NCBI GenBank assembly: GCA_903958395.1
Contig: CAJBSZ010000101.1
Location: 3,894-67,893, forward strand
DNA length: 64,000 bases
Direction of reading: 5' to 3'
Source: an uncultured bacterium
GTDB taxonomy: Bacteria; Verrucomicrobiota; Kiritimatiellia; CAIKKV01; CAITUY01
The position numbers were made by a program, and so were the translations under genes. Shown here in pieces: positions 14,271 to 49,645 of the stretch; within the stretch, counting starts at the first letter, position 1, and each line of letters opens with the position of its first letter. The notes below the pieces were generated by a model. That model was not told the DNA's origin, did no database searches, and saw only the letters and a program-made list of their open reading frames with translations.

Positions 14271-14936
14271 ATGAAATCATCCCGGAATGGAAAATTCGGC
14301 ATATTTGTCACGGGTACCGATACGGGCGTTGGGAAGACGGTGGTCGTGGCCAGTCTGTTGTCGCGTTTCAGGGCGGGTGGGGTGGATGCGGTTCCCATGA
14401 AACCGGTGCAGACGGGATGCAGGCTGGTTCAGGGGCGACCGGTGGCGCCTGATCTTGCCTTCTGCTTGAAAGCCGTCCGACTTAACCCGGGCAGGCGCGA
14501 TAGGGCCGACATGGCTCCCTATTGTTTCGCTCCGGCTTGTTCGCCCCACCTGGCGGCAAAGGAGGCAGGTGTACGCATCTCCCTACCGGTCATCGAGCGT
14601 GCGTTCCGTCGATTGAGCCGGGCTCATGAAGTGGTGGTCGTGGAGGGAGCCGGAGGTGTTCTCGTGCCGGTGAATGACCGGCAAACCATGCTGGATCTGA
14701 TGATCCGGTTGCGACTTCCCGTACTTCTGGTGGCCCGGCCTGGGGTGGGAACCCTTAATCACACCCTGCTTTCCCTGCATGCGCTTCATGGAGCCGGGCT
14801 CACGGTGATGGGCGTGATTTTGAATCAGGCGACGCCCGGTCGATGGGGGCGGATTGAAGAGGATAACGTCCGTACGATAGAGCGTCTTGGCGGAGTGAAG
14901 GTGCTGGCGTGCGTGCGGTACGGGGAAACGGTTTAG
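14271..14936 (+). CDS. bioD: ATP-dependent dethiobiotin synthetase
   Basis: FVTGTDTGVGKT P-loop and BioD fold. Confidence 0.8.
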   Translation: MKSSRNGKFGIFVTGTDTGVGKTVVVASLLSRFRAGGVDAVPMKPVQTGCRLVQGRPVAPDLAFCLKAVRLNPGRRDRADMAPYCFAPACSPHLAAKEAGVRISLPVIERAFRRLSRAHEVVVVEGAGGVLVPVNDRQTMLDLMIRLRLPVLLVARPGVGTLNHTLLSLHALHGAGLTVMGVILNQATPGRWGRIEEDNVRTIERLGGVKVLACVRYGETV

Positions 14937-16060
14937 TTCGTTTCCGCCGCCTGTTCCACCCGGGTTCCCGGCGGGATCTGAATGGTTGCCTCGCCATCCA
15001 GTTCAGAGAAATGTCCCTTTGGCTTGCAATTGAAATTCAGCACCCAGACTTCGTTCGTCTTGACCCATAAGGCGGAATGCCGGATGCGGCTCCAGGGCCA
15101 GCCGAATCCCTGGGCTTCACCGGTGATGAGTATCCGGTCGCTGAGGTCGGGGTTGGCCTTCAGGGCGATTCGGCATTTTTTGACATCAAGCCGGAGCGAC
15201 GGCGCACCGTTGGGGCTCTGCATGTCATACTTGATTTCCACAAAGGCGGGGGTTCCGAACAGGATGGCCGCAAGCATGGCAATCGCGAGAGGGGGAGCGA
15301 TCCAGACCAGCCAGCGGGATTTCAGGATGGCATGTCCCCTGCCTTGCTCCGGGGTGTCTTCCGTTTGAGGAATCCGAAGAACAAAATAATACAGTCCCCA
15401 GGCGATCACGCAGGGAAAGACCGCCGACCACACCACATCGGAGGCAAAATGGGCGCCAGCCGCCATCCGGGCCACCCCGATGAGGGTTCCATACAGGGCG
15501 GTTCCTGCAAAGGCGGCCACCGCAAGACGCTTATGGTTCCGTCGGGCAAGAAAGTAGAAGGCGATGAAGTAATAGCCCATGGAACTGTGGCCGCAGGGGA
15601 ATGATTTTCCGCGTCCTCCGGTTCCTTTTTCATAAAAACACTGATAGGTCATGGTGCCGCCAAGCTCCGTGACCTGTCTCGGACGGGGGCGCCCCCAATG
15701 ATCCTTGAAGATCGTGTTCACGAAGAGGCCGGGCCCCAGGGCCATGGTGAGAAATGCCAGGGCGGCATGCTTGCGCCATCGGGCGAGCGACGGCTTAGTG
15801 AGCGCCGCCACCAGGATCCCCAGTGATGTCAACGCCGTCAGGAGGGCGGGCCAGGGGCCGAACGTATAGAGAAACCGCCAGAAGGCATCGAATTCGTGAG
15901 GCCAGGGTCGTTCTGCGCCCGGGTGATAAAATAGCGATAGGAGTTTAATGTCCAGTGCCGGAGTGAGGAATGGAACCGTGGCGACTCCAGCCAGGAGACC
16001 AATCCAGAGCAGGTCCGCAAGCCAGGGTGATCGGAGGATTGGATCGGATGAGTTAGTCAC
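14933..16060 (-). CDS. PAP2-family lipid phosphatase with ~125-aa C-terminal extension
   Basis: KDHWGRPRP ... PCGHSS ... AGAHFASDV are the three PAP2 motifs; multiple TM helices. Confidence 0.75.
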   Translation of the reverse strand: MTNSSDPILRSPWLADLLWIGLLAGVATVPFLTPALDIKLLSLFYHPGAERPWPHEFDAFWRFLYTFGPWPALLTALTSLGILVAALTKPSLARWRKHAALAFLTMALGPGLFVNTIFKDHWGRPRPRQVTELGGTMTYQCFYEKGTGGRGKSFPCGHSSMGYYFIAFYFLARRNHKRLAVAAFAGTALYGTLIGVARMAAGAHFASDVVWSAVFPCVIAWGLYYFVLRIPQTEDTPEQGRGHAILKSRWLVWIAPPLAIAMLAAILFGTPAFVEIKYDMQSPNGAPSLRLDVKKCRIALKANPDLSDRILITGEAQGFGWPWSRIRHSALWVKTNEVWVLNFNCKPKGHFSELDGEATIQIPPGTRVEQAAETN

Positions 16061-17183
16061 AACGTTTGATCAGGATAAGCCCGAGCCCGATTGACACGAC
16101 CGCCGGAATCCAGACGATCAAATGGGGCTGGGTCCAGGGATGTTTAATGAGGGTTTCCGCCACAATGATGAAAAGGTAGAAGAGGAAGATCAGGCCGAGA
16201 CTGATTCCGATTCCCACGGTGGTTTCCTGCCGGTGGGTTTTTGTGGCCAGTGGGGCGCCGAGCAGAACGAACGCAAAGCAGGCTACCGCCAGCACGATGC
16301 GCTTGTGAAATTCGACCCGCAGCGACATATCCTGCCGTTCGAGAGCCGCTGCATCAAGTTCCGGATAAATCTTTTTGATCCCGTTCCGGGCGTCCATGAT
16401 TTCAAGCAGAGTCATATCACTTTTTTTCTTCACCCCGCCGGCGGGCTCGGCACCGGTGAGACGGCTCAGGTCAATCACGTAGGGGAAATGGCTTGCGGTT
16501 CCCGGTCCGGGGCGATCCTCGTAAAAGGGGTCGATGCGAACCTCATAAAGGTCAACCAGCAGGCCTGTTTTATCAGCGGTCGGGGAGATGGTTCCGCGCT
16601 GGGCCCGGATGGTTCGTGGCGCGGACCCTCTCTGGTTCTGATAGATGATCACATCCTCGACGTTCTGGCCGCGCTTGGAGCCGACGTAAAAGGTGATGCC
16701 TGGAAAATCACGGATGGGGCGGCCCTCCTCAATCAATTGCAGGGGGGATTCAATCCCGAGCTGGCGCAGGGCGTCCCGCCGGGCGTGGTAGCTGATGGGA
16801 ATCAGCTCGGCGTTCAAATAGAGGCAGACGGAGGCCATCAGGAGTGCAAAGAGGATGGGAGCAGCCATGATTTGAAGCATGCGAATGCCGCTTCCCTTCA
16901 TGGCGGTGATTTCACCGTTGGCGGAAAGTTTTCCAAAGGTCAGGAGCGCCGCCGTGATGATGCTGACGGGGATGGAGAAGCCGAAGGCGGAGGGCAGCCC
17001 GGCCAGGAATATTTTGGTGATCAACGCCAGGGATCCGCCTGCGGCAATGGCGTCGGTGATCCGGAAAAGCACCATCACGCACATGACAAAGGTCAGCACA
17101 AACAGGGTCATCCCGAAGGTAACCAGATAACTGTCCCTGACATATCGTGAAACAATGCGCACTACCGTTCTCCCGAAAAACAA
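16053..17183 (-). CDS. LptF/LptG-family LPS export permease (YjgP/YjgQ)
   Basis: 376 aa with N-terminal TM helices, a large periplasmic loop and C-terminal TM helices; typical LptF/G topology. Confidence 0.7.
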   Translation of the reverse strand: MFFGRTVVRIVSRYVRDSYLVTFGMTLFVLTFVMCVMVLFRITDAIAAGGSLALITKIFLAGLPSAFGFSIPVSIITAALLTFGKLSANGEITAMKGSGIRMLQIMAAPILFALLMASVCLYLNAELIPISYHARRDALRQLGIESPLQLIEEGRPIRDFPGITFYVGSKRGQNVEDVIIYQNQRGSAPRTIRAQRGTISPTADKTGLLVDLYEVRIDPFYEDRPGPGTASHFPYVIDLSRLTGAEPAGGVKKKSDMTLLEIMDARNGIKKIYPELDAAALERQDMSLRVEFHKRIVLAVACFAFVLLGAPLATKTHRQETTVGIGISLGLIFLFYLFIIVAETLIKHPWTQPHLIVWIPAVVSIGLGLILIKRCD

Positions 17184-17231
17184 GTCCCGTTCTTATACTG
17201 GGCAGGGGGGGGAATGGCAAGGAGAGAAGCG

Positions 17232-18815
17232 TCACTTCATGTGCGGTTCGTGGCAGGGGCCGCGGTATTCGTAAGCCTGGTAGACTCGGCCGTAGAAGCG
17301 GGTTCGTTCGATGACTTGGAAATAGAGCGCCCGCTCCCACGTCCACTGTTCATGGTCGAATAAAATGGCCGGCCGGCCGATCAAGGCGGGATCAGCCAGA
17401 TTCGTGTCGGTAAAATAATCATAGGAGGATTCCCGGCCCCCGCGATAACTGTCGGCACAATACACGACGGGGTGGCCTTTCATGTAGAAGGCCAGGAGGG
17501 CGGCCCGCCCGTAGGTCGAAGCCACATAAAAAGGGGTTTTCCCTGTTTCGCGCGCCATTTCACCCGACGCTTCCTCCACGCTGCGGGCAAAACGGGGAAA
17601 CCCGCTGACCCGCATGAGTGCCCGTTCCGTGTTAATGGGTTTCCCGCTGATCTTGATTTTTCCAATTGCCCGGAGGGGGTAGGGAGCGAAGGAAATCAGG
17701 ATGATCAAGGCCAGTCCCAGCCCCACCGTCCATCGCCACAGAATCCGGGAAGTGCGGTCGGACTCCAGTCGTTCAGCCAGGAAGCAGGCGATTGGAACGA
17801 GAAGGCCGATAAACGCGGCGGTGGGCCAGTTCAGTTTTATATCGGTTCGGAAGGACACCAACTGGTAGAAGAAAAATGCAGGGGCTCCAATGTGGATGGC
17901 GAAGGACACAATTTTACGGAGCGGGGACGTCTGGTCCCTGTCAGTTTCTGGAGGGTAGTATGCGGCTCGAACGGTCCGGATCAGGAGCAGGGCGGCGGGG
18001 GGGGCCAGCAGAGCAAAAGCATAGAAAGGGTAACTGACTGTCCAGAGAGGATTGTAGCGCCAGTCGGCCGCCGGGGCGACATCGCCGCCCGGCAGGCGCA
18101 TGGCGCCGATGAGGTGGCTGATAGTGGGCCACCCGTGTTGCTGATTCCAAATGGCAATGGGCATGGCAAAGAGAATTACCCCCGCGAGCATGGCCAGTGA
18201 TCCGGCGATCCGGTGGGCGCGTGAGATCTGCCCGTGTCGGAACAGGAACACGAGGAGCCCGGGGAGAATGAGTAAGACGGTATATTTACACAGCATTCCC
18301 AGACCGATGAAGGCGCCGAGAAGAAAGAACCATCCCGGGGTGGTCCGGTGGTTACAGGCCATGATCCAGCCGGTGAAGGCGACGGCCAGCCAGCAGGCAT
18401 AATAGGGGCCATCAGTGGTCATGAACTGGCTTGTGCCATGGAACACGGGGAGCAGGCAGAAGAGAAGCATCGCCAGCCAGCCGGCACGCCGGTTCCCGCC
18501 TGACGCATGGGTCGCGAAGGCGGCCAGGATCAGCATGGAAGAAAACGCGGCGAGGGCTGCAGGCAGGCGCACAGCCCATTCGGTGATGCCAAAGACATGA
18601 ACCGCCGGAGCGATCAGCCAGGCGATGGCCGGGCCTTTGCTGTAGTACGACCAATCGAGGCGGCGCGACCAGTCCCAGTATTGCGCCTCGTCGGCGACCA
18701 GCTCGAAGGGACACAGCCAGACCAGATAGGCGATTCTCATGAGCAGGACGAGACCGGCGAAAAGAATCAGGCGGATCCATGACGGTTGCGTGATCGGGTT
18801 GTTCAGTGTTTTCAC
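17232..18815 (-). CDS. ArnT/PMT-like (GT39/GT83) polyprenyl-phosphate-sugar-dependent glycosyltransferase
   Basis: N-terminal ...DEAQYWDWSRRL... GT-C motif and about 12 TM helices plus a C-terminal soluble domain. The start is trimmed to the GTG at 18815, because the track ORF overlaps wbaP. Confidence 0.65.
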   Translation of the reverse strand: MKTLNNPITQPSWIRLILFAGLVLLMRIAYLVWLCPFELVADEAQYWDWSRRLDWSYYSKGPAIAWLIAPAVHVFGITEWAVRLPAALAAFSSMLILAAFATHASGGNRRAGWLAMLLFCLLPVFHGTSQFMTTDGPYYACWLAVAFTGWIMACNHRTTPGWFFLLGAFIGLGMLCKYTVLLILPGLLVFLFRHGQISRAHRIAGSLAMLAGVILFAMPIAIWNQQHGWPTISHLIGAMRLPGGDVAPAADWRYNPLWTVSYPFYAFALLAPPAALLLIRTVRAAYYPPETDRDQTSPLRKIVSFAIHIGAPAFFFYQLVSFRTDIKLNWPTAAFIGLLVPIACFLAERLESDRTSRILWRWTVGLGLALIILISFAPYPLRAIGKIKISGKPINTERALMRVSGFPRFARSVEEASGEMARETGKTPFYVASTYGRAALLAFYMKGHPVVYCADSYRGGRESSYDYFTDTNLADPALIGRPAILFDHEQWTWERALYFQVIERTRFYGRVYQAYEYRGPCHEPHMK

Positions 18816-18841
18816 TTTAGGACTGTTTTTGCGGTGCCGGT

Positions 18842-20251
18842 TCAATAGGCGTTGGTGCGAGCCGTAAGGGTGCGGAGCAGGATTTTGAAGTCGAAGGACA
18901 GGGACCAATTTTCCAGGTAATAGAGGTCGTACTTGATCCGTTCCTCGATACTGGTATTGCCCCTCAGCCCATTGACCTGGGCCCAGCCGGTCATGCCCGG
19001 TTTGGAGACATGCCGCCACATGTAACGGTCAATGTCATCCTTGAACTTTTCCACAAAGTGCGGCCGCTCCGGCCTCGGCCCGATCAGGCTCATGTCGCCC
19101 CGCAGCACATTCCAGAGTTGGGGCAGTTCGTCAATGTTTGTGGTGCGGAGGAAGGATCCGATCCGGGTCCGGCGAGGATCATTTTCAATGGTCCAGACGG
19201 GGCCCGTCTCCTTTTCGGCGTCGGTTCGCATGGTTCGGAGCTTGTAGATACTGAATTCCTTGCCGTTTTCACCGCATCGTTTCTGTTTGTAGAAAACAGG
19301 ACCTGGCGAGGAGCGTTTCACCAGCAGGGCAACCAGCGCGAGGAAGGGGGCGATGACCAAAAGGCCTGCAAAGGCACCGCAGATATCCTCTATGCGTTTG
19401 AGGATCCGGTTCCAGAAATAGTCCAGCGGCCACCGGCTGACCCCGAGGAGGGGAATGTCGTCGATGGTCTGCATGTCCATGCTTCCGGTCATGATGCGGA
19501 ACATGTCAGGCACCATGTTGAAGGTGATCATATTTCGCTCGCAGGCGAGGATGATTTCCAAAACCCGTTGGTGGCCGATATTGCTGTCGCTCAGGATGAT
19601 CTGGTCTGCGGGATGGGAATCGAGAATTGTGTCAAGCTCCTGAAGTTCGCCACGGATCAGGTAATTTGGTAAAGCAGGGTCGATTTGGGCCGTTCCGGAT
19701 CGGATGAATCCAACTACTTTTGAACGGAGGCGGGGATCCGCCTCCAATCCGCGTTTCAGATGAGCGGCAACATAGTCCGTTCCCACGATCAGAATGCGTT
19801 TGGACTGATGGCCCCGGCGCGCCAGTCGGATTTCGAACCGGAACAGAAGATAACGCTCAACCATAACAAAGACCATAATGGTCAGAAAAGAGAGCCCGAT
19901 CGTGAGACGCGAGATAGGCGGTTCGGTGCGGAAGGCGAAAGCCAATGCCGTGGTCAGGAGGATCCCGATTCCGATGGATCGGATGAGCCTCGGGATTTTT
20001 CCGGAAAAGCTGCCGAGCTGGGGGCGGACATAAAGGCCGAGGGATCGGAAAATAAAAAGGAATATGAGGGTGGCAATGGCGGAGCCCCAGCCATAGAGAA
20101 AGCACAGGTTGGGCGGCCAGCTGTCCACCCCGATAAGTCCGCTGTAGAAACGGAGCCAGATGGCCGCGACAAACCCGCAGAAAATGGCCAGGGCATCGGC
20201 GGTTACGGCCAAGCCGCTCGTCAGCGCATCCATGGTGTCGCGTATTCGCAT
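18842..20251 (-). CDS. polyprenyl-phosphate hexose-1-phosphate transferase (WbaP/bacterial sugar transferase family)
   Basis: C-terminal sugar-transferase domain ...DELPQLWNVLRGDMSLIGPRP...; 469 aa with N-terminal TM helices. Confidence 0.8.
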   Translation of the reverse strand: MRIRDTMDALTSGLAVTADALAIFCGFVAAIWLRFYSGLIGVDSWPPNLCFLYGWGSAIATLIFLFIFRSLGLYVRPQLGSFSGKIPRLIRSIGIGILLTTALAFAFRTEPPISRLTIGLSFLTIMVFVMVERYLLFRFEIRLARRGHQSKRILIVGTDYVAAHLKRGLEADPRLRSKVVGFIRSGTAQIDPALPNYLIRGELQELDTILDSHPADQIILSDSNIGHQRVLEIILACERNMITFNMVPDMFRIMTGSMDMQTIDDIPLLGVSRWPLDYFWNRILKRIEDICGAFAGLLVIAPFLALVALLVKRSSPGPVFYKQKRCGENGKEFSIYKLRTMRTDAEKETGPVWTIENDPRRTRIGSFLRTTNIDELPQLWNVLRGDMSLIGPRPERPHFVEKFKDDIDRYMWRHVSKPGMTGWAQVNGLRGNTSIEERIKYDLYYLENWSLSFDFKILLRTLTARTNAY

Positions 20252-20252
20252 G

Positions 20253-20609
20253 TCAGGAAGGAATCACCTTGATCTGGATGTTCCATTCCCTGGCCAGCCA
20301 GTCCATGAATTCTGCCTGTTCATGAGGAAGGGTGTCAGCAAGCGTTTCGGAGAGAACGGTTCCCAGAATGAGTTCGCGCGCGTCGGGATTGGTGATGGTT
20401 TTCAGGAAAGCCTTGAGCGCGCTCCGGTCGGGAAAAAGACTTTCTGCCTCATCCGCCAGTTCATGAAAAGTATCGTCGCCCAGTTCATCGACAATATCCT
20501 CTATCTGGGCCACCTCCATATCGGTAATGGTACGGTCACTGATGACGGCGACTTCCGTCAAGGCCACAAGGGCGAGTTGCTCATTACGGGACAGTTCTTT
20601 CAAGGTCAT
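20253..20609 (-). CDS. acidic hypothetical protein (possibly TerB-like)
   Basis: 118 aa, strongly acidic, with no diagnostic motif; 1-nt gap to wbaP suggests co-transcription. Confidence 0.4.
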   Translation of the reverse strand: MTLKELSRNEQLALVALTEVAVISDRTITDMEVAQIEDIVDELGDDTFHELADEAESLFPDRSALKAFLKTITNPDARELILGTVLSETLADTLPHEQAEFMDWLAREWNIQIKVIPS

Positions 20610-20683: not shown

Positions 20684-23014
20684 TTACTCCAGGATCTGGA
20701 TTTCGGTTTCCAGCCGGATTCCTGACCGGCTCTTGACTTCCGCCCGGGTGATTTCGAGCACGGCCATTACATCGGAAGCCCGGGCAAGAGGGGTCGTGAC
20801 GATGACGTTGGCATGGTTCAGGGAAATCGAGGCGCCGCCCACAGTGAAACCCTTCAGTCCGGCCTGTTCGATCAACTGTCCTGCAAAGCCGCCGGGTGGA
20901 TTTTTAAAAATCGAACCCGCGGACCTCAGTCCTTTCATCCAGGCTCGGCGTTGCACCAGTTCCGCCCGTTCCCGGGATATCGCGTCGGGATCTCCGGGCG
21001 TCAGTTGAAAGGCGGCCTCGATGATAATTTGGTCGCGTAAGGCTGGACAGGAGCGATAGCCGAAGTCCAGGTCATTGCGATTGATGACGACTATCCGGTC
21101 ATCACGGTCAATGAAACGTACCCAGGCCAGGGTATCGGCGATGGATTTTCCCCAGGCGCCTGCATTACCCCGAACGGCGCCGCCGACGGTTCCGGGAATG
21201 GACTCGAGGAATTCCAATCCAGTCAGGCCCTGATTCGCGCACTCGTTGAGAAGTTTTGGCAGGGATGTTCCCGCCCCTGCCACCACGAGGCCTTCGTGCG
21301 CCGAGACGCGACGGAAGGGTTCCCCGGTCAGGCGCGCCACAACACCCCGGACACCCAGATCACTAATGAGGACATTGCTTCCGCCCCCCAGGATCTGGAA
21401 GGGGATCATGGCGGAGCGGGTCCATTTTATAATGTTAAGGAGGTCGTCCTCAGTGGCCACTTCCATCCAGAGATCGGCATGGCCACCGACGCCCAGTGTG
21501 GTGCGGTTGGCCAGTGGTTCGCGGCCTTTGATCAGGGTGGACTGCAGGTCAATTTCACGGATAGCCCGGCTCACGGGGCTAATGAGGTCCTCGATGCGTT
21601 TGCGGCCCAGATCGTCGCGGGCCCAGCTGGCAATACGTTCCACATCGCCCGCGCCAATAACCAGGAACGCATCGCCGATCTGCAATTGGCCGCGACAATA
21701 GTCCCAGGCGTTGCGAAGGGATGGGGCCACTGTGATATTCAGGTCCGGATGTTTCCGGCAAAGGGCGTACAGATCCCAAATAGATCCACCCGCGAGCGGG
21801 GCTTCCGAGGCGGCATAGACCGGGCACAATACGACTTCGTCCAATCCTTTGAAGGCGGGCGGGAAGTCGGGGCCCAAAGCCCGTGTCCGGGTGTAGCGGT
21901 GCGGCTGAAACACCGCCAGAATTCGGGGTCGGTTCAGGCGGCTTGTTGCGTTGACCAGAGCGGCGATTTCGGAGGGATGGTGGGCATAATCGGAGATGAC
22001 AACGAGGTCGGCTCGGTCAATGATCCGTTCAAACCGGCGGCGGGGCAGTGCCACTTTGGCGAGAGCCTCCCGGAGTACCGGCAGGGGGATTTCGAGCTCA
22101 AGCCCTACAGCAAGGCTTGAGATGGCATTCAGGACATTGTGACGGCCCGGTGCGGGAACTGTGAAGAGCCCCAGTGGAGTCCCCCTCTGCGAGAGGCGGA
22201 ACTCTGTCGAGACGGGGGTTTCCCGGAGGACTTCGGCGCTCAAGGCGGCATCCTTTGAAAATCCGAATGAGGTGGCAAGCGGGTGGGCTCCGCAGATCTT
22301 GGCGGCACGGGGATCATCGGCGCAAAACAGAATTCGGCGGCGTGTTTGCAGGATAAAAGTCCGGAAGCACTCCTCAAAGGCGTCCACGCCGTCGAAATGT
22401 TCCATATGGTCGAACTCGACATTCGTGACCACGGCGATGTCCGGGGCATACAGGGCGAGGGTACCGTCGCTTTCATCGGCCTCCACGACGGTGAGGCCCC
22501 CCGTGCCGATTCCTGCAACCCCGCCCAGGGGCTCTGCCTCACCGCCGATGCAGAAGGAAGGCGCGCGGCCCGCTTGGGTCAGGATCTGGGCAATGAAGGA
22601 TGAGGTGGTGGTTTTGCCATGGGTTCCGGCCACCGCCACGAAAGGGGTGTCGGCCAGCAGGGCGGCAAGCACCTGGCCCCGCTTGAAGACGGGGATTCCG
22701 CGAGTTATCGCCGCCTGGATTTCGTCGGAGGTTTCAGGGACGGCGGCACTGCGGACAACCCACTGGACATCAGGGGTCAGATGGGCGGGGGCATGGCGCT
22801 CAACGACCGTGATGCCCCGTTCCCGGAGCCAGCCTGCGAGTTTGTTGATCATCAGGTCGCAGCCTGAAACGGTGAAGCCCCGTGCCTTGAGCAAAATGGC
22901 GAGGCCGGCCATGCCGATGCCGCAAATGCCCGCAAAATGAACATGGCCGGAGCCAGACTGGATCCGTTGCGACAAGTGGGGGAGTGAGTTTTGGAGACTG
23001 AAAGGAGTGGTCAT
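20684..23014 (-). CDS. murC-murB: fused UDP-N-acetylmuramate--L-alanine ligase / UDP-N-acetylenolpyruvoylglucosamine reductase (MurC-MurB)
   Basis: N-terminal MurC (HFAGICGIGMAGLA..., GTHGKTTT) spans ~470 aa; the C-terminal ~300 aa is MurB (FAD-binding GGGSN..., substrate domain). It is a single 776-aa ORF. Confidence 0.85.
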   Translation of the reverse strand: MTTPFSLQNSLPHLSQRIQSGSGHVHFAGICGIGMAGLAILLKARGFTVSGCDLMINKLAGWLRERGITVVERHAPAHLTPDVQWVVRSAAVPETSDEIQAAITRGIPVFKRGQVLAALLADTPFVAVAGTHGKTTTSSFIAQILTQAGRAPSFCIGGEAEPLGGVAGIGTGGLTVVEADESDGTLALYAPDIAVVTNVEFDHMEHFDGVDAFEECFRTFILQTRRRILFCADDPRAAKICGAHPLATSFGFSKDAALSAEVLRETPVSTEFRLSQRGTPLGLFTVPAPGRHNVLNAISSLAVGLELEIPLPVLREALAKVALPRRRFERIIDRADLVVISDYAHHPSEIAALVNATSRLNRPRILAVFQPHRYTRTRALGPDFPPAFKGLDEVVLCPVYAASEAPLAGGSIWDLYALCRKHPDLNITVAPSLRNAWDYCRGQLQIGDAFLVIGAGDVERIASWARDDLGRKRIEDLISPVSRAIREIDLQSTLIKGREPLANRTTLGVGGHADLWMEVATEDDLLNIIKWTRSAMIPFQILGGGSNVLISDLGVRGVVARLTGEPFRRVSAHEGLVVAGAGTSLPKLLNECANQGLTGLEFLESIPGTVGGAVRGNAGAWGKSIADTLAWVRFIDRDDRIVVINRNDLDFGYRSCPALRDQIIIEAAFQLTPGDPDAISRERAELVQRRAWMKGLRSAGSIFKNPPGGFAGQLIEQAGLKGFTVGGASISLNHANVIVTTPLARASDVMAVLEITRAEVKSRSGIRLETEIQILE

Positions 23015-23251
23015 CGTGGCTATGAAATTGTGTCTTCAACCGGAGTCATTGGCACATAGTATTATTATTGATATCCTGATCAATCACTTTTCGTATGCCA
23101 ACGATCACAATCTGGTGAAAGACGACAAATCTTCTGTTCCATTCTTCTGGATCGGCAGGTATTTAGAGGCGTCTGCCTTGGAATATTTGATGCCGCCGTT
23201 GACGGGAGAGGGTGGGCTCGGCTAAAGTGACCCGGTTTTGAGTTCGCCATT

Positions 23252-24367
23252 ATGAAGATTATTGACCGATATATTTTGAAGCAGTACCTCGTTCCCTTCG
23301 GGTACATTCTGGGCACGTTCAGCCTGCTTTACATCATTTTGGATTTATTTGACCGGTTTTCTGATTTTGTGGCCGTCAAGGCGGATGCCCTGGATATCCT
23401 GCTATACTACGGCTATTTCCTGTTCAAGGTGAACGGGTTCGTTCCGTTTCTGGTCATGGTGCTTCCCATTGCGATGCTGCTCGCCACGCTGTACACCCTG
23501 ACGCTGTTCGCCCGGCATAATGAGCTTACGGCCATGTGCGCCAGCGGAGTCAGCCTGCGCCGCCTGATGGTACCCCTGATGGTTGTCGGGTTGCTCGCCA
23601 GTTTGTTCGGTGCCGTGGTTCAGGAAACCATAGGGCCGGTGGCAACACGCTGGATTGCAAACTACACTAAACAGGTGCTGAAGCGTTCGAGCGATTCGTC
23701 CTTTGTTGTGAGGGATTACCTGTATCATTCAGGAACTGCGAACCGGCAATGGTTGATTAAGGAACTTGATCAGCGAACACCCACCGTTCTGAAGGGTGTC
23801 AAGGTTACGCATGAACGGCCGGATCGTTCGCTGGTTAGGGAAATCACGGCGGATCGTGCCGAATGGATGGATGGGTCCTGGTGGTTTTACGGGGTGCGCC
23901 AGCGGGATTACAACGAAAAGAGCGATCCAGTCGGAGCCCAGACCGAGGTGTTGGATAAGCCTATTGAAATGACGGACTATGACGAGCAGCCTGATGATTT
24001 CATCAACGAACTCAAGGATGTGGACTTTCTCTCCACAGCCGATATGGTCCGCTCCATTCAAAAGCGGCCGGATGTCTCCGGGCGATGGCTGGCAAAGCGG
24101 TTGACTGACATCAATTCCCGGGTGGCAATGCCCTGGTCCTGCCTGGTTCTGATTTTGTTGGGGCTGCCTGCCGCCCTCGGAGGGGGACGACAGTCGGCAA
24201 TGCGAAGTGTGGCCTTCGGGGTGGTCGCTTTGTTTGCCTTCTATGTGCTGATCCAGATGGGGATGATTCTTGGCAAGCGGGAGCTCATTTCCCCCTGGCT
24301 TGCCGGCTGGCTCCCGAATCTTACATTTCTGGGGATTGGCGGCTGGCTGACCTGGCGGTTGCGATAG
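23252..24367 (+). CDS. LptF/LptG-family LPS export permease (second copy)
   Basis: MKIIDRYILKQYL... is the canonical LptF/G N-terminus; 371 aa with the same topology as the first copy. Confidence 0.7.
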   Translation: MKIIDRYILKQYLVPFGYILGTFSLLYIILDLFDRFSDFVAVKADALDILLYYGYFLFKVNGFVPFLVMVLPIAMLLATLYTLTLFARHNELTAMCASGVSLRRLMVPLMVVGLLASLFGAVVQETIGPVATRWIANYTKQVLKRSSDSSFVVRDYLYHSGTANRQWLIKELDQRTPTVLKGVKVTHERPDRSLVREITADRAEWMDGSWWFYGVRQRDYNEKSDPVGAQTEVLDKPIEMTDYDEQPDDFINELKDVDFLSTADMVRSIQKRPDVSGRWLAKRLTDINSRVAMPWSCLVLILLGLPAALGGGRQSAMRSVAFGVVALFAFYVLIQMGMILGKRELISPWLAGWLPNLTFLGIGGWLTWRLR

Positions 24368-25178
24368 TCGACAGCTTCTTTTTGAGCGTCCACACCAGAA
24401 GGGAAATGCCGCCCAGAGCGAGCATCGCGAGGGTGATCTGTGCGATGGAATGAGCCAGGGTTTCCTTGCTGAACCCCTTCCCCAAGCCGCTCCCGATTGC
24501 TGCCACCAGGGCGGAACTGGGCAGATATCCCAAAAAAGAACCCAGCAGGAAATACCGGTGCTTAACCGGAGTCAGCCCCAGAATGAGATTGGGAACCACT
24601 CCAGCAATGGGAAGCTGGCGCACCAGGAAGATGGTGAACGTCGAGGGCTTCTTGAGCAGATCGCGCAGTCGACGGTTCTTTTCGATACGCTTCATCACCC
24701 AGTCCCGTCCACCCCAGCGGGCAAAGATAAAGGTGGTGTAGGAGCCGAAAAGGGCGGAGAGCTGACCGACGATGAAACCGGTTTGAAACCCGAACAGGAC
24801 GGCCGCCAGGCCGCACAGGAACATACGGGGAATGCCGATGGCAATCAGGCCGGTGCTGACCAGAAAGAATAATGTGGACGCCCAGATCCCGAAGTGCTGG
24901 ATGGTGTGCTTCCAGGCCTGATCGTTGGTGAGTTTCTGCAGGGGTGTGAAATGCACGATGGCGATGCAGACCACCACCACCAGCGCCATGAGTAGAAGTT
25001 TCTGTTCCGATTTTCCGGCTGACTCCGCAACCTCGAGTTCCAGTTCAATGGGGACCGGATCCGGCTCATCCGAAGGAGTGGGCGTGGGTGGCGTCGTTGA
25101 TGACCCCGGCGGAGAATTGGGTGTGGCTCCCTCAAATGTTGAAGGATCCGTGTTTCGTTCATCAAATTCTTCGCTCAT
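24321..25178 (-). CDS. DedA/TVP38/TMEM64-family membrane protein
   Basis: Pro/Thr-rich N-terminus followed by the SNARE-associated/DedA core; start placed at the internal ATG 25178. Confidence 0.7.
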   Translation of the reverse strand: MSEEFDERNTDPSTFEGATPNSPPGSSTTPPTPTPSDEPDPVPIELELEVAESAGKSEQKLLLMALVVVVCIAIVHFTPLQKLTNDQAWKHTIQHFGIWASTLFFLVSTGLIAIGIPRMFLCGLAAVLFGFQTGFIVGQLSALFGSYTTFIFARWGGRDWVMKRIEKNRRLRDLLKKPSTFTIFLVRQLPIAGVVPNLILGLTPVKHRYFLLGSFLGYLPSSALVAAIGSGLGKGFSKETLAHSIAQITLAMLALGGISLLVWTLKKKLSTIATARSASRQSPEM

Positions 25179-25180
25179 GG

Positions 25181-27553
25181 TTATTTGTCCCTCGCCAGGA
25201 TGTGGATTGCGACCCACTTCCCCTGAGAATAGTTGAAGCCCGGGATGATATCCAGCGTTTGAATTCCAGGGGTGTTCAAGGCCTCCCGGAAGGGGTTCAG
25301 TCGGGTTTCCGTGACGACCAGGATTCCTTTCCCGGGTGCCGCCGCCCAGGCCGGGAGGTCGGGCCCCTCGAGGGAAATGAGGGGCGCTTTCCTGCCCAGA
25401 TAAAAATTCAGGCTCGGTTCGCCGTACCCGCAGGTGGTTACCGGGGTGTCCGGGCTGGCTTGTTCCTGGATAAAAGACGCGATGAGCGGTGCCACTTTAT
25501 AGGATTCCACTGCGGGGAGCAGGAACAATGCGGTGGAAAGAAAAGCCGTCATCATGCCCGCGATCAGGATTCCGGCCACCGTCCCGTGTCGGGCGCGCTG
25601 GTAATGTCGCCACACCAGAAAGACCATGGTGAGAAAAATGACTCCGACTCCCGTGGCGGGAACTCGTACTCCGAAAACTGGGAGGAACCAGGGTACGCTG
25701 ATCAGGGCGAGGCCGAGACTGAGGCCGACCAGAAGAAATAGACCGAGCCCGATCCGGGCGGCAAGGGTTCGGTTTCCGGCCAGCCCCTCACTCATGGCCC
25801 GCTGAAGTCCCAGCGCCGTGGCAATGGCCAGCGCCGGCCAGGCGGGCAGGATGTAGTGGGGCAGTTTGGTCGCCACCAGACTCATCAGGAGAATGACCGG
25901 CACTCCCCAGCAGAGAAGAAGTTTTCTCCCGCTCCCTTCAGGGGAGCGGGTTGGGGTGAGGATGCTGCGTCCGGAAAAGAGTCGCGGCAGATAGAGTGTC
26001 CATGGGAAAAAAGCTAGGAGAATGACCGGCAGATAATAGAAATAAAACACAAAGGACTGTCCGCCGTGGCTTTCCATGGCATTCAGGGAGCGGGCGACGA
26101 CATGTTTCCCAATACCCAGACGCAGAAACTCGCCGTTGGTTGCGGCATTGGCCGGAAGGCCCCACGCCAAAAACAACACCGTGGCCGATGCCACGGCGAA
26201 GATAAGCCATCCCAGATAAGGGAGCGGACGGAGAACTCCTCCTTTGGCAAAGATCATGATGGCGGCTATGACCAGGAGCGGGACGGCTAGCCCAACCGGG
26301 CCTTTTGTCAGGATGGCCCCCGCCAGCGCGAGGATCATCAGGGGAAGGTGCCAGACCTTGAATCCCCGGAACCATGACAATAGGAAGGTTGAGATGGCCC
26401 CGGTGATGCAGGCGAGGAGCAGGGCGTCGGTTGTGGCGGCGGTTCCGCTGACGGCCATGAGGGGGGAGAGCATCAGGATCAGGCCTGCTATGAGGGCCGG
26501 CTTGGGGCCGGTCAGGCGGCGGGCAATCCAGACTGTGAGCAGGGCTGTGATCAGCGTGGCGATGGGCGCTACCAGGCGGCAGGCCAGTTCGGAGGGGCCG
26601 AGGAGGCGGACCGGCAGTGACATGAGCCAGTAGATCAGGATGGGTTTATCGGCCCGCAACTGGCCATTGAAGGTGGGGACGAGATAGTTTCCGGATTCCA
26701 CCATCTCGACGGTCGCACGCGAAAACCGGGGCTCATCGCGATCCCACAGCGACGAGGCGGCGCAGAGCGAGAGGTAGAGAGTGAAAATGAGTGCGAAAAG
26801 CAAAATGGAACTTCGCATGGGTTTTTTCTGCCATGCAGGAAAAAGACGGGCGATCAACAGGAAGCCGCCCAGTGGGCCCCAGATTCGAAGGAAATCCAGA
26901 ACAAAGGGCGTGGCGCGGGCCCAGGCGAGGTTGATGACAGCAAAGGCGATAATCAGAATTCCGGCGATGAAAAACCAGCGGCGGGGCGGCCGCCAGTGCC
27001 ACCTTCGAAGAATGGCCAGGGCGACGGCGGAGGCGATCAGGCCGAGCGCGGCGCCCGTGAGGGCATCACTGGGGAAATGCCGGCCGTCATAGATCCGGCC
27101 GGTGATCACGCCGCCCGTGATCACGGCGGCGAGGGGTGCGGTCCACGGCGAAGCAGTCAGTAGGGGGGCGCAGAAAGCGGCGGCCGTGGCGACATCTCCG
27201 CTGGGAAATGACTCATCATTTGTAAAGGCCGGGCGTTCGCGTCCTACAACGATTTTGAGAGGTGTGACCAGAATGGCGACCACGCCGAGAGCCAGCAGGA
27301 TGTGCATCGCTTTCCGACGTGCCCCGGCCACTCCCAATGCAGCAATGATGAGGAGAATGACGTCGCCTTTCCCGAAAGGGCGGACGAGATTCAGGAGTTC
27401 CTGGACAATATGGATTTTTCCAACCCGGTGGGAAAAGGTTCGCAGGGTCTGGTAGATAGCGGAATCAAGCGGAAAAATCAGAGCCGCAACCGCCAGCAGG
27501 AGGGCGGCGGGCAGAAGGTAAGACACATAGACTGATTTAACCGGTTGCTTCAT
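25181..27553 (-). CDS. fusion protein: N-terminal PAP2 phosphatase + C-terminal ArnT-like (GT83) glycosyltransferase
   Basis: Residues ~90-170 carry the PAP2 motifs (RERPAF, PSGD, GRHFPSDA). The remaining ~600 aa form an ArnT-type GT-C with an ...RDEPRFSRATVEM... N-terminal motif and many TM helices. Confidence 0.7.
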   Translation of the reverse strand: MKQPVKSVYVSYLLPAALLLAVAALIFPLDSAIYQTLRTFSHRVGKIHIVQELLNLVRPFGKGDVILLIIAALGVAGARRKAMHILLALGVVAILVTPLKIVVGRERPAFTNDESFPSGDVATAAAFCAPLLTASPWTAPLAAVITGGVITGRIYDGRHFPSDALTGAALGLIASAVALAILRRWHWRPPRRWFFIAGILIIAFAVINLAWARATPFVLDFLRIWGPLGGFLLIARLFPAWQKKPMRSSILLFALIFTLYLSLCAASSLWDRDEPRFSRATVEMVESGNYLVPTFNGQLRADKPILIYWLMSLPVRLLGPSELACRLVAPIATLITALLTVWIARRLTGPKPALIAGLILMLSPLMAVSGTAATTDALLLACITGAISTFLLSWFRGFKVWHLPLMILALAGAILTKGPVGLAVPLLVIAAIMIFAKGGVLRPLPYLGWLIFAVASATVLFLAWGLPANAATNGEFLRLGIGKHVVARSLNAMESHGGQSFVFYFYYLPVILLAFFPWTLYLPRLFSGRSILTPTRSPEGSGRKLLLCWGVPVILLMSLVATKLPHYILPAWPALAIATALGLQRAMSEGLAGNRTLAARIGLGLFLLVGLSLGLALISVPWFLPVFGVRVPATGVGVIFLTMVFLVWRHYQRARHGTVAGILIAGMMTAFLSTALFLLPAVESYKVAPLIASFIQEQASPDTPVTTCGYGEPSLNFYLGRKAPLISLEGPDLPAWAAAPGKGILVVTETRLNPFREALNTPGIQTLDIIPGFNYSQGKWVAIHILARDK

Positions 27554-27703
27554 AAACCCCCAATCAAACCATGGGTGGCGTCAGAGTCAAGGAAATCAAT
27601 TTATATGATATTGACTTGGGGGGTGTTTCTGGGCATGGTGTGCGCCCGTGCATTCCGGTGCATCTGTGTATTGAAGCAATGTATTGAGAGGGAAGGTGTT
27701 GCC

Positions 27704-27889
27704 ATGTCTGGAAAAGGTGTAGATACCCGTATGGGACGGCCTGTTAAGGGTGCGTCCGACAAGAAGCGTCGCGAAAAGGTTCAAGCTCTCCGTTTGATCG
27801 GGTTGGGTGTTCCTGAAGCAACGGTGAAGAAGATGAATCCGACCGAGGTTCGCACGATGTTGAAGCGGCCGGCCAAGTTGAAAAAGTAA
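27704..27889 (+). CDS. small Lys/Arg-rich protein (61 aa), function unknown
   Basis: GGGAAGG RBS-like sequence upstream of the ATG and a strong intrinsic terminator directly downstream; very basic composition. Confidence 0.4.
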   Translation: MSGKGVDTRMGRPVKGASDKKRREKVQALRLIGLGVPEATVKKMNPTEVRTMLKRPAKLKK

Positions 27890-27917
27890 TAGAGGCCGTT
27901 TTCTTCGAAATCGATCC

Positions 27918-27955
27918 GCCAGCCTGACCGCTCCGGTCAGTCTGGCGTTTTTTTG
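27918..27955 (+). terminator. rho-independent terminator
   Basis: GCCAGCCTGACCG-ctc-CGGTCAGTCTGGC hairpin (one mismatch) followed by TTTTTTT. Confidence 0.7.
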
Positions 27956-28002
27956 TTTCATTCCCCGGATTCTGTGGCGTACTCTATAGCAGAGTGTGAT
28001 CC

Positions 28003-28998
28003 ATGAAAGTGCTTTGCGTACTCAATCCCGGGGCGGCAGGCGGCGATGCCTTGAAGCTCTGGCCCGTGGTCGCCGACTTGCTTCAACAGCAGGGCGTTGA
28101 CTATGAGTTGTTGTCCTGTGAAGGCGGATCCCCGATCAAGGACCAGGTTTACACCCAACTGATGGCGGCCGGAGCGGCGGCCTACGACGTGGTGGCGGGG
28201 ATCGGCGGAGATGGCACCCATGCCGCCGTGATCAACGCCTTGATGCAGGTCCGGGCGGCCTGCGGGGGAGTCCTGAAGCCCCGGTATGCCTTCATCCCCC
28301 TGGGCACAGGCAATGACATCGCTAAATCCCTGGGAATCCGGATTCACGATGACTATTCCCCTCGCGATCTCCGGCGCGCGGTCTCAACTATCCTGCATGG
28401 GGCTGATTACTGTCTCGACCTGGGCGTGATCAAGGGAACCTATTTTGCCGATGCCCTGACCATCGGGCTTGATTCCCGCATTCTCATGGAGCGGAATACT
28501 CATAAACGTGCCCTTGAAACCATTCCGTTGCTGAAATACCTGGCGAAGGGACGATTCCTCTACACGATGTCATGGGGCTCCCGGTTCTTACAGCACGCCC
28601 CCATGGTGGGGGAAATCAGGGTGGACGGGAAGTCCTGGTATACGGGGCGGTTGATCAATGTGGTGGTTAATAATACCCGGATTTATGCCGGTGATTTTGA
28701 TTTCAGCAGGGATGCCTATCCTGATGACGGTCTTCTGGATGTGGTTCTGTTCAATGCGCATGTGGACTATCTGACCCGCTATCTTCTGGCGATCCGTCAT
28801 AACCCGGACAAAATCAGGGACCTCTCCGCTGAATTGCATCGGCGTTCCATGCAGATCCAGGGGCGGGAAATCGAAATCCTTCTTGAGGATCCCGAGCCGG
28901 CTCAGGTGGATGGCGAGGAGTTTCCCGGAGATTCGATTTTCAAGGTTTCCGTGGCGTATCGCGTCTTGCCTATCAAAACTCCCGCTGAACCGCTGTGA
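28003..28998 (+). CDS. YegS/DgkA-like lipid kinase (DAGK catalytic domain)
   Basis: VLNPGAAGG ... GIGGDGT ... PLGTGND motifs of the diacylglycerol-kinase catalytic family. Confidence 0.75.
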   Translation: MKVLCVLNPGAAGGDALKLWPVVADLLQQQGVDYELLSCEGGSPIKDQVYTQLMAAGAAAYDVVAGIGGDGTHAAVINALMQVRAACGGVLKPRYAFIPLGTGNDIAKSLGIRIHDDYSPRDLRRAVSTILHGADYCLDLGVIKGTYFADALTIGLDSRILMERNTHKRALETIPLLKYLAKGRFLYTMSWGSRFLQHAPMVGEIRVDGKSWYTGRLINVVVNNTRIYAGDFDFSRDAYPDDGLLDVVLFNAHVDYLTRYLLAIRHNPDKIRDLSAELHRRSMQIQGREIEILLEDPEPAQVDGEEFPGDSIFKVSVAYRVLPIKTPAEPL

Positions 28999-47153: not shown

Positions 47154-47584
47154 GCCAGAGTGAAAAACGCGGCGGCATCCAGGATGGAAAGCCCGTTTTT
47201 GTGAAGGGCTTTGGAGGCCTGGTCGGGCTTGTCCACCCGGACAATCATGATTGCGTTACTGCCCCGCTTAAGGGTAAAGGCGTACATGTATTCGATGTTG
47301 ATGGCATTGGGTTCCAGGATGGCCAGAATGCTTTCCATACCCCCGGGATGATCCGGAATTTCAATGGCCAGTACATCGCTGATAGTCACCACGCAGCCGG
47401 CCTTCTCCAGTACGTCCCGGGCCTTTTCCCACTCCCTGATCATGATCCTCAGAATGCCGAATTTTCCAGTGTCCGCGAGGCAGAGGGTTGGGATATTGAT
47501 GCCTGCCGCCGCCAGCACCTTGCAAGGATGGCCGAGGCGGCCGGGTTTGTTTTCCAGACAGACAGACAGTTGTTTCAGTGTCAT
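47150..47584 (-). CDS. tandem ACT-domain protein
   Basis: Two ~65-aa beta-alpha-beta-beta-alpha-beta ACT-like units; 4-bp overlaps on both sides. Confidence 0.6.
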   Translation of the reverse strand: MTLKQLSVCLENKPGRLGHPCKVLAAAGINIPTLCLADTGKFGILRIMIREWEKARDVLEKAGCVVTISDVLAIEIPDHPGGMESILAILEPNAINIEYMYAFTLKRGSNAIMIVRVDKPDQASKALHKNGLSILDAAAFFTLA

Positions 47585-49608: not shown

Positions 49609-49645
49609 GGTGACAGTTGAGTCGGATTGAATACGATGGGGGGCT

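Follow-up and report, generated by a model that had tools for sequence, protein, structure and literature searches.

A PAP2 phosphatase fused to an ArnT-like glycosyltransferase in Verrucomicrobiota and other phyla: a candidate enzyme for exchanging a lipid A phosphate for a sugar

A 64,000-nucleotide stretch of contig CAJBSZ010000101.1 (positions 3,894 to 67,893; hereafter the window), from an uncultured bacterium of the Kiritimatiellia (Verrucomicrobiota), contains a gene for a 790-residue protein in which a PAP2-family phosphatase module is joined to an ArnT-like glycosyltransferase (GT) module of the GT-C type. Judged from their residues, both catalytic modules appear intact. On sequence resemblance and by analogy with known enzyme pairs, we lean toward the view that the protein removes a phosphate from lipid A and then glycosylates the exposed hydroxyl (LpxE/RgtF-type). 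Coordinates are positions within the window, and residue numbers are those of the 790-residue fusion unless another protein is named. The parts of the fusion are as follows.

25181..27553, − strand: PAP2/ArnT-like GT-C fusion open reading frame (ORF), 790 residues, a single open frame
26819..27553, − strand: PAP2 module, residues 1–245, delimited by AlphaFold2 helices, hydropathy and charge, and profile search
27230..27256, − strand: PAP2 motif C1, K100-x6-R107-P108, aligning to K73/R80 of Aquifex aeolicus LpxE (AaLpxE; PMC6581854)
27194..27205, − strand: PAP2 motif C2, P117-S-G-D120, with Asp in place of the usual His
27065..27097, − strand: PAP2 motif C3, R153-x5-H159-x3-D163, aligning to R137/H143/D147 of AaLpxE
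26828..26983, − strand: two-helix hairpin, residues 191–242, between the PAP2 core and the first transmembrane (TM) helix of the GT-C
25184..26818, − strand: ArnT-like GT-C module, residues 246–790, a 13-TM-type body with a C-terminal periplasmic alpha/beta domain

The fusion is a single and recurrent gene

The fusion ORF has no internal stop or frameshift. Pfam PAP2 (PF01569) matches residues 82–184 (E 1.4e-12, 47.9 bits against a gathering threshold of 27.2) and PMT_2 (PF13231) matches residues 302–460 (E 6.5e-16). A sequence-only reading of this DNA had described one 790-residue ORF combining PAP2 motifs with an ArnT-like GT-C body; the domains, the motifs and the open frame are all found, nothing interrupts the frame between the domains, and the same fusion is present in other genomes.

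The identical 790-residue protein is present on 11 contigs from several samples, and a search of 5.8 billion proteins gave ~100 protein clusters from independent projects that have both Pfam domains at 37–89% identity. Among 50%-identity representatives, scanned exhaustively with HMMER, 1037 relatives were found at E<=1e-30; of the top 150, ~40 are full-length fusions. Carriers belong to the Verrucomicrobiota, Planctomycetota, Lentisphaeria and Desulfobacterota, and include the isolate genome of Desulfosoma caldarium (WP_123291116.1, automatically named 'ArnT family glycosyltransferase'). The possibility that two neighbouring genes were joined through sequencing or assembly error is raised by the metagenomic origin of the assemblies, and no other support for it was found. 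Because the identical protein recurs on 11 contigs and the same two domains are joined in ~100 diverged clusters, the junction did not arise in assembly; the isolate genome, the frequency of full-length fusions and a predicted structure with a single compact chain likewise speak against one, and an artefact is effectively excluded.

The PAP2 module most resembles LpxE

In the AlphaFold2 model the PAP2 module consists of an N-terminal TM helix, an amphipathic helix predicted to be periplasmic, an LpxE-like five-helix core and a C-terminal two-helix hairpin. The fusion matches the tripartite PAP2 signature KX6RP–PSGH–SRX5HX3D, differing as PSGD in C2 and as (G)R153 in C3. Conservation was followed in three alignments: A1 and A2, with 18 and 62 fused homologues (A2 down to 37% identity), and A3, with 22 sequences. 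K100 does not vary in A1 or A3 and shows at least 90% conservation in A2, R107 and P108 are the same throughout A1–A3, and both the PSGD of C2 and the whole of C3, including the predicted nucleophile H159, are invariant in these alignments. The same His-to-Asp replacement in C2 is found in AaLpxE, which is an active enzyme (PMC6581854).

A profile of 22 PAP2 modules finds AaLpxE at E 2e-25, ahead of BsPgpB/YodM (6e-15) and EcPgpB (1e-6). Foldseek comparison of the module with the PDB gives the same order, with AaLpxE (6EBU) at TMt 0.77 and a root-mean-square deviation of 3.1 Å, and Bacillus subtilis PgpB (5JKI) at TMt 0.63. By these sequence and fold comparisons, the closest characterised relative of the PAP2 module is an LpxE, AaLpxE. 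The curated LpxE model of NCBIfam (PRK09597) does not match the window protein, and matches three of the 22 related modules at E 5e-5 or worse.

The GT-C module is ArnT-like

The NCBIfam ArnT model (PRK13279) covers residues 247–653 of the fusion (E 1e-35), and phmmer aligns residues 259–726 to Cupriavidus ArnT (CmArnT, 5EZM; E 4e-19). The top Foldseek match for the fusion in the PDB is likewise CmArnT (5F15; E 2e-16, TMt 0.76). Corresponding residues are D273/E274 (CmArnT D55/E56), D302/K303 (E84/K85), D376 (D158), R488 (R270) and, in the motif K563-LPH-Y567, Y567 (Y345). All of these ArnT-equivalent residues are invariant in 62 sequences except Y567, which is at least 90% conserved. Since the ArnT model score is 123 bits, where an equivalog needs 567, the module is best described from its sequence as ArnT-like and not as an ArnT orthologue. 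No arnBCADEF genes occur among the window ORFs scanned (Pfam scans covered 37 of them). The earlier ArnT/GT83-type label thus suits the fold and the catalytic residues but does not extend to orthology or to an arn gene context.

Predicted structure and membrane topology

AlphaFold2 modelling on the 62-sequence alignment gave a mean predicted local distance difference test (pLDDT) score of 89.4 and a predicted template modelling (pTM) score of 0.90 for the whole chain, and the latter indicates that the modules are arranged relative to each other in a defined way. The predicted path begins with a short cationic N-terminus in the cytoplasm, a TM helix at about residues 10–30 and a periplasmic amphipathic stretch. 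In the five-helix LpxE core that follows, motifs C1–C3 are placed within periplasmic loops. The chain is then predicted to pass through a cytoplasmic loop (RRWHWRPPRRW, with five Arg), the hairpin and a second cytoplasmic loop (QKKPMRS), and from there through TM1 of the ArnT-like module (residues 249–266) to a periplasmic loop that carries D273/E274. Because the hairpin contributes two helices flanked by Arg/Lys-rich loops, topology and register are predicted to be kept across it; its G226-P227 pair is nearly invariant.

Taken together, the AlphaFold2 helices, hydropathy, charges read by the positive-inside rule and the homologous AaLpxE and ArnT lead us to infer that both active sites (C1–C3 and D273/E274) face the periplasm. 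A cytoplasmic PAP2 site, which would have counted against the sequence-only reading, is not what these predictions give.

The Met codon for M245 (26819–26821, − strand) lies exactly on the boundary between the modules (QKKP-M-RSS) and is not conserved among homologues; initiation there, yielding a stand-alone GT-C, is speculative. A promoter and terminator scan of 23000–28200 was uninformative, with counts at or near shuffle expectation.

Fused, split and unfused loci

A survey with one genome for each GTDB species places the family in the Verrucomicrobiota, Planctomycetota (Phycisphaerae, Pirellulales and Sedimentisphaerales), Acidobacteriota and Gemmatimonadales, and 81 loci were classified by ORF calling and phmmer. 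PAP2–GT-C fusions are present in 15 of the 81 (14 besides the window's own contig). In ~17 Planctomycetota loci an orthologous GT-C gene (41–46% identity) is followed directly by a separate PAP2 gene on the same strand, and an Acidobacteriota locus (L022) has the opposite order, PAP2 then GT-C, as separate overlapping ORFs. The co-directional split PAP2 proteins have SFPSGD in 15 of 15 aligned, and the hairpin region at their C-terminus can be aligned with its counterpart in the fusion. The GT-C is thus fused to a PAP2 module or adjacent to a PSGD-type PAP2 gene in ~33 of the 81 loci. A specific PAP2 subtype is tied to this GT-C family both as fusion and as operon partner in either order, which constitutes a genetic (Rosetta-stone) linkage.

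Two kinds of candidate partner were set aside. At L021, L061, L077 and L078 the PAP2 gene is encoded on the strand opposite to the GT-C gene, shows the canonical PSGH and lacks the hairpin, which makes a cognate partnership improbable. What looks like a PAP2 module encoded alone (P0147, 67% identity) is a truncated gene at the end of its contig.

A GT2 gene of ~258 codons, whose best NCBIfam match is ArnC, adjoins the unfused GT-C gene in 10 Planctomycetota loci (L011, L013, L021, L024, L027, L030, L033, L055, L058 and L073), often divergently, with scores of up to 304 bits between loci. GT2, GT-C and PSGD-type PAP2 form a three-gene module. Clustering of 724 neighbour ORFs from the 81 loci revealed no universally conserved neighbour besides PAP2. 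In a marine Planctomycetota subclade the conserved neighbours are unrelated housekeeping genes (an M48 peptidase, formate-dehydrogenase-like and Nuo-like subunits, and RadA). In a rough neighbour-joining tree of the GT-C, built without support values, the fused Verrucomicrobiota proteins are monophyletic and three other fusions (L012, L039 and L080) are scattered among unfused members.

Genes next to the fusion and a second, unfused set

The following features of the window surround the fusion; LPS denotes lipopolysaccharide.

24321..25178, − strand: DedA/VTT protein, 285 residues (PF09335, E 2.7e-19, 70.3 bits against a gathering threshold of 33.9)
23252..24367, + strand: LptG-like LPS-export permease (PF03739, E 5e-65; LptG model TIGR04408 197 bits versus LptF 121)
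18842..20251, − strand: WcaJ/EPS-type polyprenyl glycosylphosphotransferase (TIGR03025, 443 bits), directly upstream of the second GT-C gene
17232..19019, − strand: second, unfused ArnT-like GT-C (PMT_2; PF13231, E 9.5e-20), with an ADE motif after TM1
16053..17183, − strand: LptF-like LPS-export permease (PF03739, E 1.7e-64; LptF model TIGR04407 170 bits versus LptG 99)
14933..16060, − strand: unfused LpxF-like PAP2 (PF01569, E 2e-23), with a canonical PCGH motif

The fusion and DedA genes are separated by 2 nt, the junction reading TAA-CC-ATG. With this ATG 2 nt past the fusion stop, the DedA start is likely at 25178 and less likely at the GTG at 25217, and the sequence of the junction indicates translational coupling of the two genes. 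The order fusion then VTT, with a 2-nt gap or a 4–32 nt overlap, is found in all Verrucomicrobiota relatives examined (L001–L010 and L083–L085; 51–100% identity). The window DedA protein matches no NCBIfam family. DedA proteins of the UptA or PA4029 type are flippases of the C55 carrier undecaprenyl phosphate (Und-P, or C55-P; PMC12893004), and another member of the group, PetA, moves different lipids (PMC10193950). That DedA fits a C55-P flippase role, as the sequence-only reading had proposed, agrees with this published activity and with the coupling in every Verrucomicrobiota relative examined. Residues 1–75 of the DedA protein (24954–25178, − strand) form a low-complexity tail rich in Pro, Thr, Ser and Glu ahead of the first TM helix.

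The LptG gene is convergent to the DedA gene, with a 3′ overlap of 47 nt, and so stands outside the fusion–DedA operon. The same convergent arrangement is kept in all Verrucomicrobiota relatives examined (51–100% identity), and DedA/LptG adjacency was not seen around fused or split homologues in other phyla. PF03739 matches only two genes in the window, the LptG-like and the LptF-like gene, both full length and both below the TIGR equivalog cutoffs; given their contrasting LptG and LptF scores, the LptG-like gene is an ordinary half of an LptF/LptG pair. It had previously been taken for a second LptF/G paralog: the gene is real, but it is the LptG of the pair and not an extra copy, and it is not co-transcribed with DedA. 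The adjacency, which had also been offered as a tie to LPS export, is confined to the Verrucomicrobiota clade.

Some 6 kb from the fusion and on the same strand, the second GT-C, the LptF-like and the LpxF-like PAP2 genes form an operon-like row (14933–19019, − strand). The second GT-C is only remotely related to the fused one (29% over 78 residues), has no sequence match to any solved structure, and probably starts near 18815 at a non-ATG codon, shortly past the stop of the upstream gene, because the ORF as called overlaps the upstream gene by 178 nt. The best NCBIfam match of the unfused PAP2 protein is the lipid A 4′-phosphatase LpxF (117 bits, below the cutoff of 400), and JGI labels its homologues 'lipid A 4′-phosphatase'. 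The overlapping LptF and LpxF-like pair is kept in two further loci (L086 and L087; 63% and 49% identity), the latter with three tandem PMT_2 genes upstream. With this second set, each of the lipid A phosphates may have a phosphatase/GT pair of its own.

A relative of the fusion at 53% identity (L084) has genes for LpxK, a GT9 heptosyltransferase and another GT2 upstream of the fusion. After its fusion–DedA–LptG genes, it carries a 483-residue protein without family match, a 249-residue GT2 and a UbiA protein (14497–17685 of that locus).

Proposed function and alternatives

In the proposed reaction scheme, lipid A-core would first be flipped to the periplasmic leaflet of the inner membrane. 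The LpxE-like PAP2 module would then take off one lipid A phosphate, and the GT-C module would next move a sugar from a polyprenyl-phosphate-sugar donor to the freed hydroxyl. The net outcome would be a sugar in the place of the phosphate, as is achieved by the separate proteins LpxE with RgtF, or LpxF with RgtD, in Rhizobiales. The 1-phosphate is the better guess for the position, in view of the LpxE resemblance and of the separate LpxF-like enzyme nearby. The co-translated DedA protein would most likely carry polyprenyl phosphate, once released, back to the cytoplasm; as another option, it might export the lipid-linked sugar donor. Lipid A as the substrate, the position, the sugar, the order of the reactions and the role of DedA are each things that we only infer.

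The nearest solved relatives of both modules, LpxE and ArnT, act on lipid A, which by homology favours the same acceptor here. LPS genes lie near the Verrucomicrobiota fusions: LptG, LptF, the LpxF-like PAP2 and the second GT-C in the window, and LpxK and GT9 in the 53%-identical relative. The scheme also draws on the conserved catalytic residues of both modules, the linkage of one PAP2 type to this GT-C family and the rgtE–lpxE–rgtF gene order of Oligotropha. The scheme departs from the sequence-only reading, in which LpxE/LpxF-type phosphatases and ArnT act sequentially on the same lipid A phosphate. ArnT attaches 4-amino-4-deoxy-L-arabinose (L-Ara4N) to the phosphate, which it needs as acceptor and which a phosphatase would destroy, so the fusion is not expected to carry out ArnT chemistry and that part of the reading falls.

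Several observations weigh against the removal and replacement of a lipid A phosphate. The substrate of the PAP2 module cannot be read from its sequence, and AaLpxE also dephosphorylates undecaprenyl diphosphate (Und-PP, or C55-PP; PMC6581854). NCBIfam models of Und-PP phosphatases match more of the 22 PAP2 modules than the LpxE model does (SepP 21 and YbjG-type PRK11837 15, versus three), all of them weakly. A GT2 synthase of a polyprenyl-phosphate-sugar donor was found neither among the Pfam-scanned window ORFs nor by phmmer with a Planctomycetota GT2 (from L033) over all window ORFs. Most unfused orthologues (~45 of the 81 loci) have no PAP2 gene within 8 kb, and the D. caldarium fusion is part of a cluster of general polysaccharide genes that includes neither Lpt nor DedA genes.

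The lean of the per-member NCBIfam matches is what would be expected if the PAP2 module were an UppP/YbjG/PgpB-like Und-PP phosphatase that recycles the carrier, with a GT-C that uses or adjoins enzymes of Und-PP-glycans and a DedA protein that flips Und-P back. AaLpxE and its structural twin YodM also act on C55-PP or phosphatidylglycerol phosphate (PMC6581854), a member of the DedA family, known for C55-P flippases (PMC12893004), is co-translated here, and the WcaJ-type enzyme (18842..20251), a source of Und-PP intermediates, is in the same region. We consider such recycling unlikely, since the window protein scores at most 26 bits with the Und-PP phosphatase models, far under their cutoffs of 229–250, and there is no obvious reason why a housekeeping UppP should be linked to one GT-C family in both fused and split form. 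A further argument against it is that the donors of characterised ArnT/PMT-clan GT-C enzymes are monophosphate-linked sugars and the carrier set free is Und-P instead of Und-PP. The ArnC-like GT2 beside the GT-C in 10 loci implies a monophosphate-linked donor as well, whose by-product needs no phosphatase; this leaves no carrier-recycling job for the PAP2 module and points to the acceptor as its substrate.

The phosphatase might instead mature the donor, converting polyprenyl-P-ribose-5-P to polyprenyl-P-ribose as the PAP2 protein Rv3807c does after the UbiA-type synthase Rv3806c in mycobacteria, with the GT-C then transferring a pentofuranose. Pentofuranose pathways made up of a synthase, a phosphatase and a GT-C are established (PMC11127046). 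The UbiA protein of the 53%-identical relative, 4 kb from its fusion and beside a GT2, scores 240 bits against a cutoff of 234 for the NCBIfam decaprenyl-phosphate phosphoribosyltransferase. However, such a UbiA occurs in one of 85 loci and not in the window, the recurrent neighbour is the ArnC-like GT2, which needs no phosphatase, and characterised Gram-negative systems use a cytoplasmic HAD phosphatase domain fused to the synthase, all of which makes donor maturation improbable.

A different acceptor is also conceivable, such as a core Kdo or heptose phosphate, a phosphoglycolipid or a polysaccharide, as is a PMT-like protein glycosyltransferase with an independently acting PAP2. PMT_2 is a broad clan with many acceptors, and the fused GT-C scores far under the ArnT equivalog cutoff. 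The D. caldarium orthologue lies amid GT2, GT4 and glycerophosphotransferase genes of polysaccharide or teichoic-like type, and no LPS genes are found in neighbourhoods outside the Verrucomicrobiota. We regard these options as rather unlikely, because both nearest solved relatives act on lipid A, LPS genes are present in the window and in the 53%-identical relative, there is the lpxE–rgtF precedent, and diderm phyla account for those of the best 80 species-level loci that have named lineages. These phyla are regarded as diderm and LPS-bearing; a few of the records are titled 'bacterium' only.

If the fusion does replace a lipid A phosphate with a sugar, a more ambitious extension can be drawn, which we hold as doubtful. 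Lipid A might be dephosphorylated and glycosylated without release, the hairpin serving as docking element and DedA closing the carrier cycle. Together with the GT-C/LptF/LpxF-like operon, this would yield a constitutive, phosphate-free and sugar-capped lipid A whose formation is wired genetically to the Lpt exporter.

Comparison with known systems

The closest functional parallel is in Rhizobia, where LpxE and RgtF act at position 1 and LpxF and RgtD at position 4′ so that a sugar replaces the phosphate, and where the GT2 RgtE makes the bactoprenyl-phosphate-galacturonic acid donor (PMC9393093). Oligotropha carries rgtE, lpxE and rgtF one after another, and in Aquifex and Mesorhizobium rgtE clusters with rgtF (PMC7663294). 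As in LpxE with RgtF, a PAP2 phosphatase is combined with an ArnT-like GT-C at what is predicted to be the periplasmic face, and the Planctomycetota trio of GT2, GT-C and PAP2 matches this gene set; the likeness to RgtF and RgtD is one of gene arrangement and published reaction. In contrast to these systems, the fusion is one polypeptide joined through a conserved two-helix hairpin, and it occurs in Verrucomicrobiota, Planctomycetota and others rather than in Proteobacteria or Aquificota. By analogy, the Planctomycetota trio and the window fusion may be the rgtE–lpxE–rgtF module in new lineages and, for the fusion, in a new physical form.

ArnT itself (5EZM/5F15) shares with the fusion the GT-C fold, the catalytic and phosphate-binding residues and presumably a polyprenyl-phosphate sugar as donor. 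The fusion has lost one of the two zinc-site His (H265 to G) and has no arn operon, and whereas ArnT decorates a phosphate, the fused phosphatase would imply glycosylation at a dephosphorylated position. AaLpxE (6EBU) is a lipid A 1-phosphatase with its active site at the periplasmic surface (PMC6581854), a location predicted for the fusion as well, and it shares the PSGD variant and is the best match in sequence and structure; unlike this 180-residue stand-alone enzyme with a periplasmic N-terminus, the fusion module has an extra N-terminal TM helix, the C-terminal hairpin and the GT-C.

LpxT and ArnT interact physically at the inner membrane of Pseudomonas aeruginosa (PMC13142001), and that pair resembles the fusion in associating a PAP2-family lipid A enzyme with an ArnT-type GT-C. 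It differs in being non-covalent and in that LpxT is a phosphotransferase, which adds a phosphate and antagonises ArnT-mediated resistance, so that the two do not form a sequential phosphatase–transferase couple. Three-component systems (Gtr, Arn and pentofuranose; PMC11127046) likewise have a GT-C acting on a GT2-made lipid-linked monosaccharide, and DedA could fill their flippase slot; the fusion system differs in its additional PAP2 module, in having no GtrA or ArnE/F-type flippase and in a synthase that is not in the window. The LpxE of Porphyromonas gingivalis (PMC12704123) is also an LpxE-type PAP2 fusion, but its partner is a C-terminal beta-barrel, probably for outer-membrane localisation, and not a glycosyltransferase.

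Other genes of the window

A MurC–MurB fusion of 776 residues (20684–23014, − strand) combines Mur ligase N, M and C domains with FAD_binding_4 and MurB_C, and the same fused gene is present on the identical contigs. Between it and the glycosylphosphotransferase gene is an acidic ORF of 118 residues (20253–20609, − strand), which is also called on identical public contigs and has no convincing Pfam family. A 702-residue ORF (47581–49689, − strand) matches no Pfam family at E<=1e-4.

Significance

A literature search found no paper describing PAP2 and an ArnT-like GT-C in a single chain, and none reporting lipid A structures of Verrucomicrobiota or Planctomycetota; databases carry the fusion under generic automatic names only. 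By analogy, the fusion would perform in one covalent unit a step known from two separate enzymes, in phyla for which lipid A has hardly been characterised. The combination of fused and split forms offers an independent genomic argument that a PSGD-type LpxE partners a specific ArnT-like GT-C, which could aid the annotation of hundreds of 'GT39/ArnT-like' and 'PAP2' genes. Structural studies of the hand-over of lipid A from one remodelling enzyme to another would have a convenient object in a phosphatase–transferase that is naturally a single chain, and the conserved DedA operon would provide a clean genetic setting for the link between DedA flippases and GT-C enzymes outside the Proteobacteria. 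If the proposed function is correct, Verrucomicrobiota, Planctomycetota, Lentisphaerota and some Desulfobacterota would swap a lipid A phosphate for a sugar, thereby removing the main target of cationic antimicrobial peptides and altering innate immune recognition.

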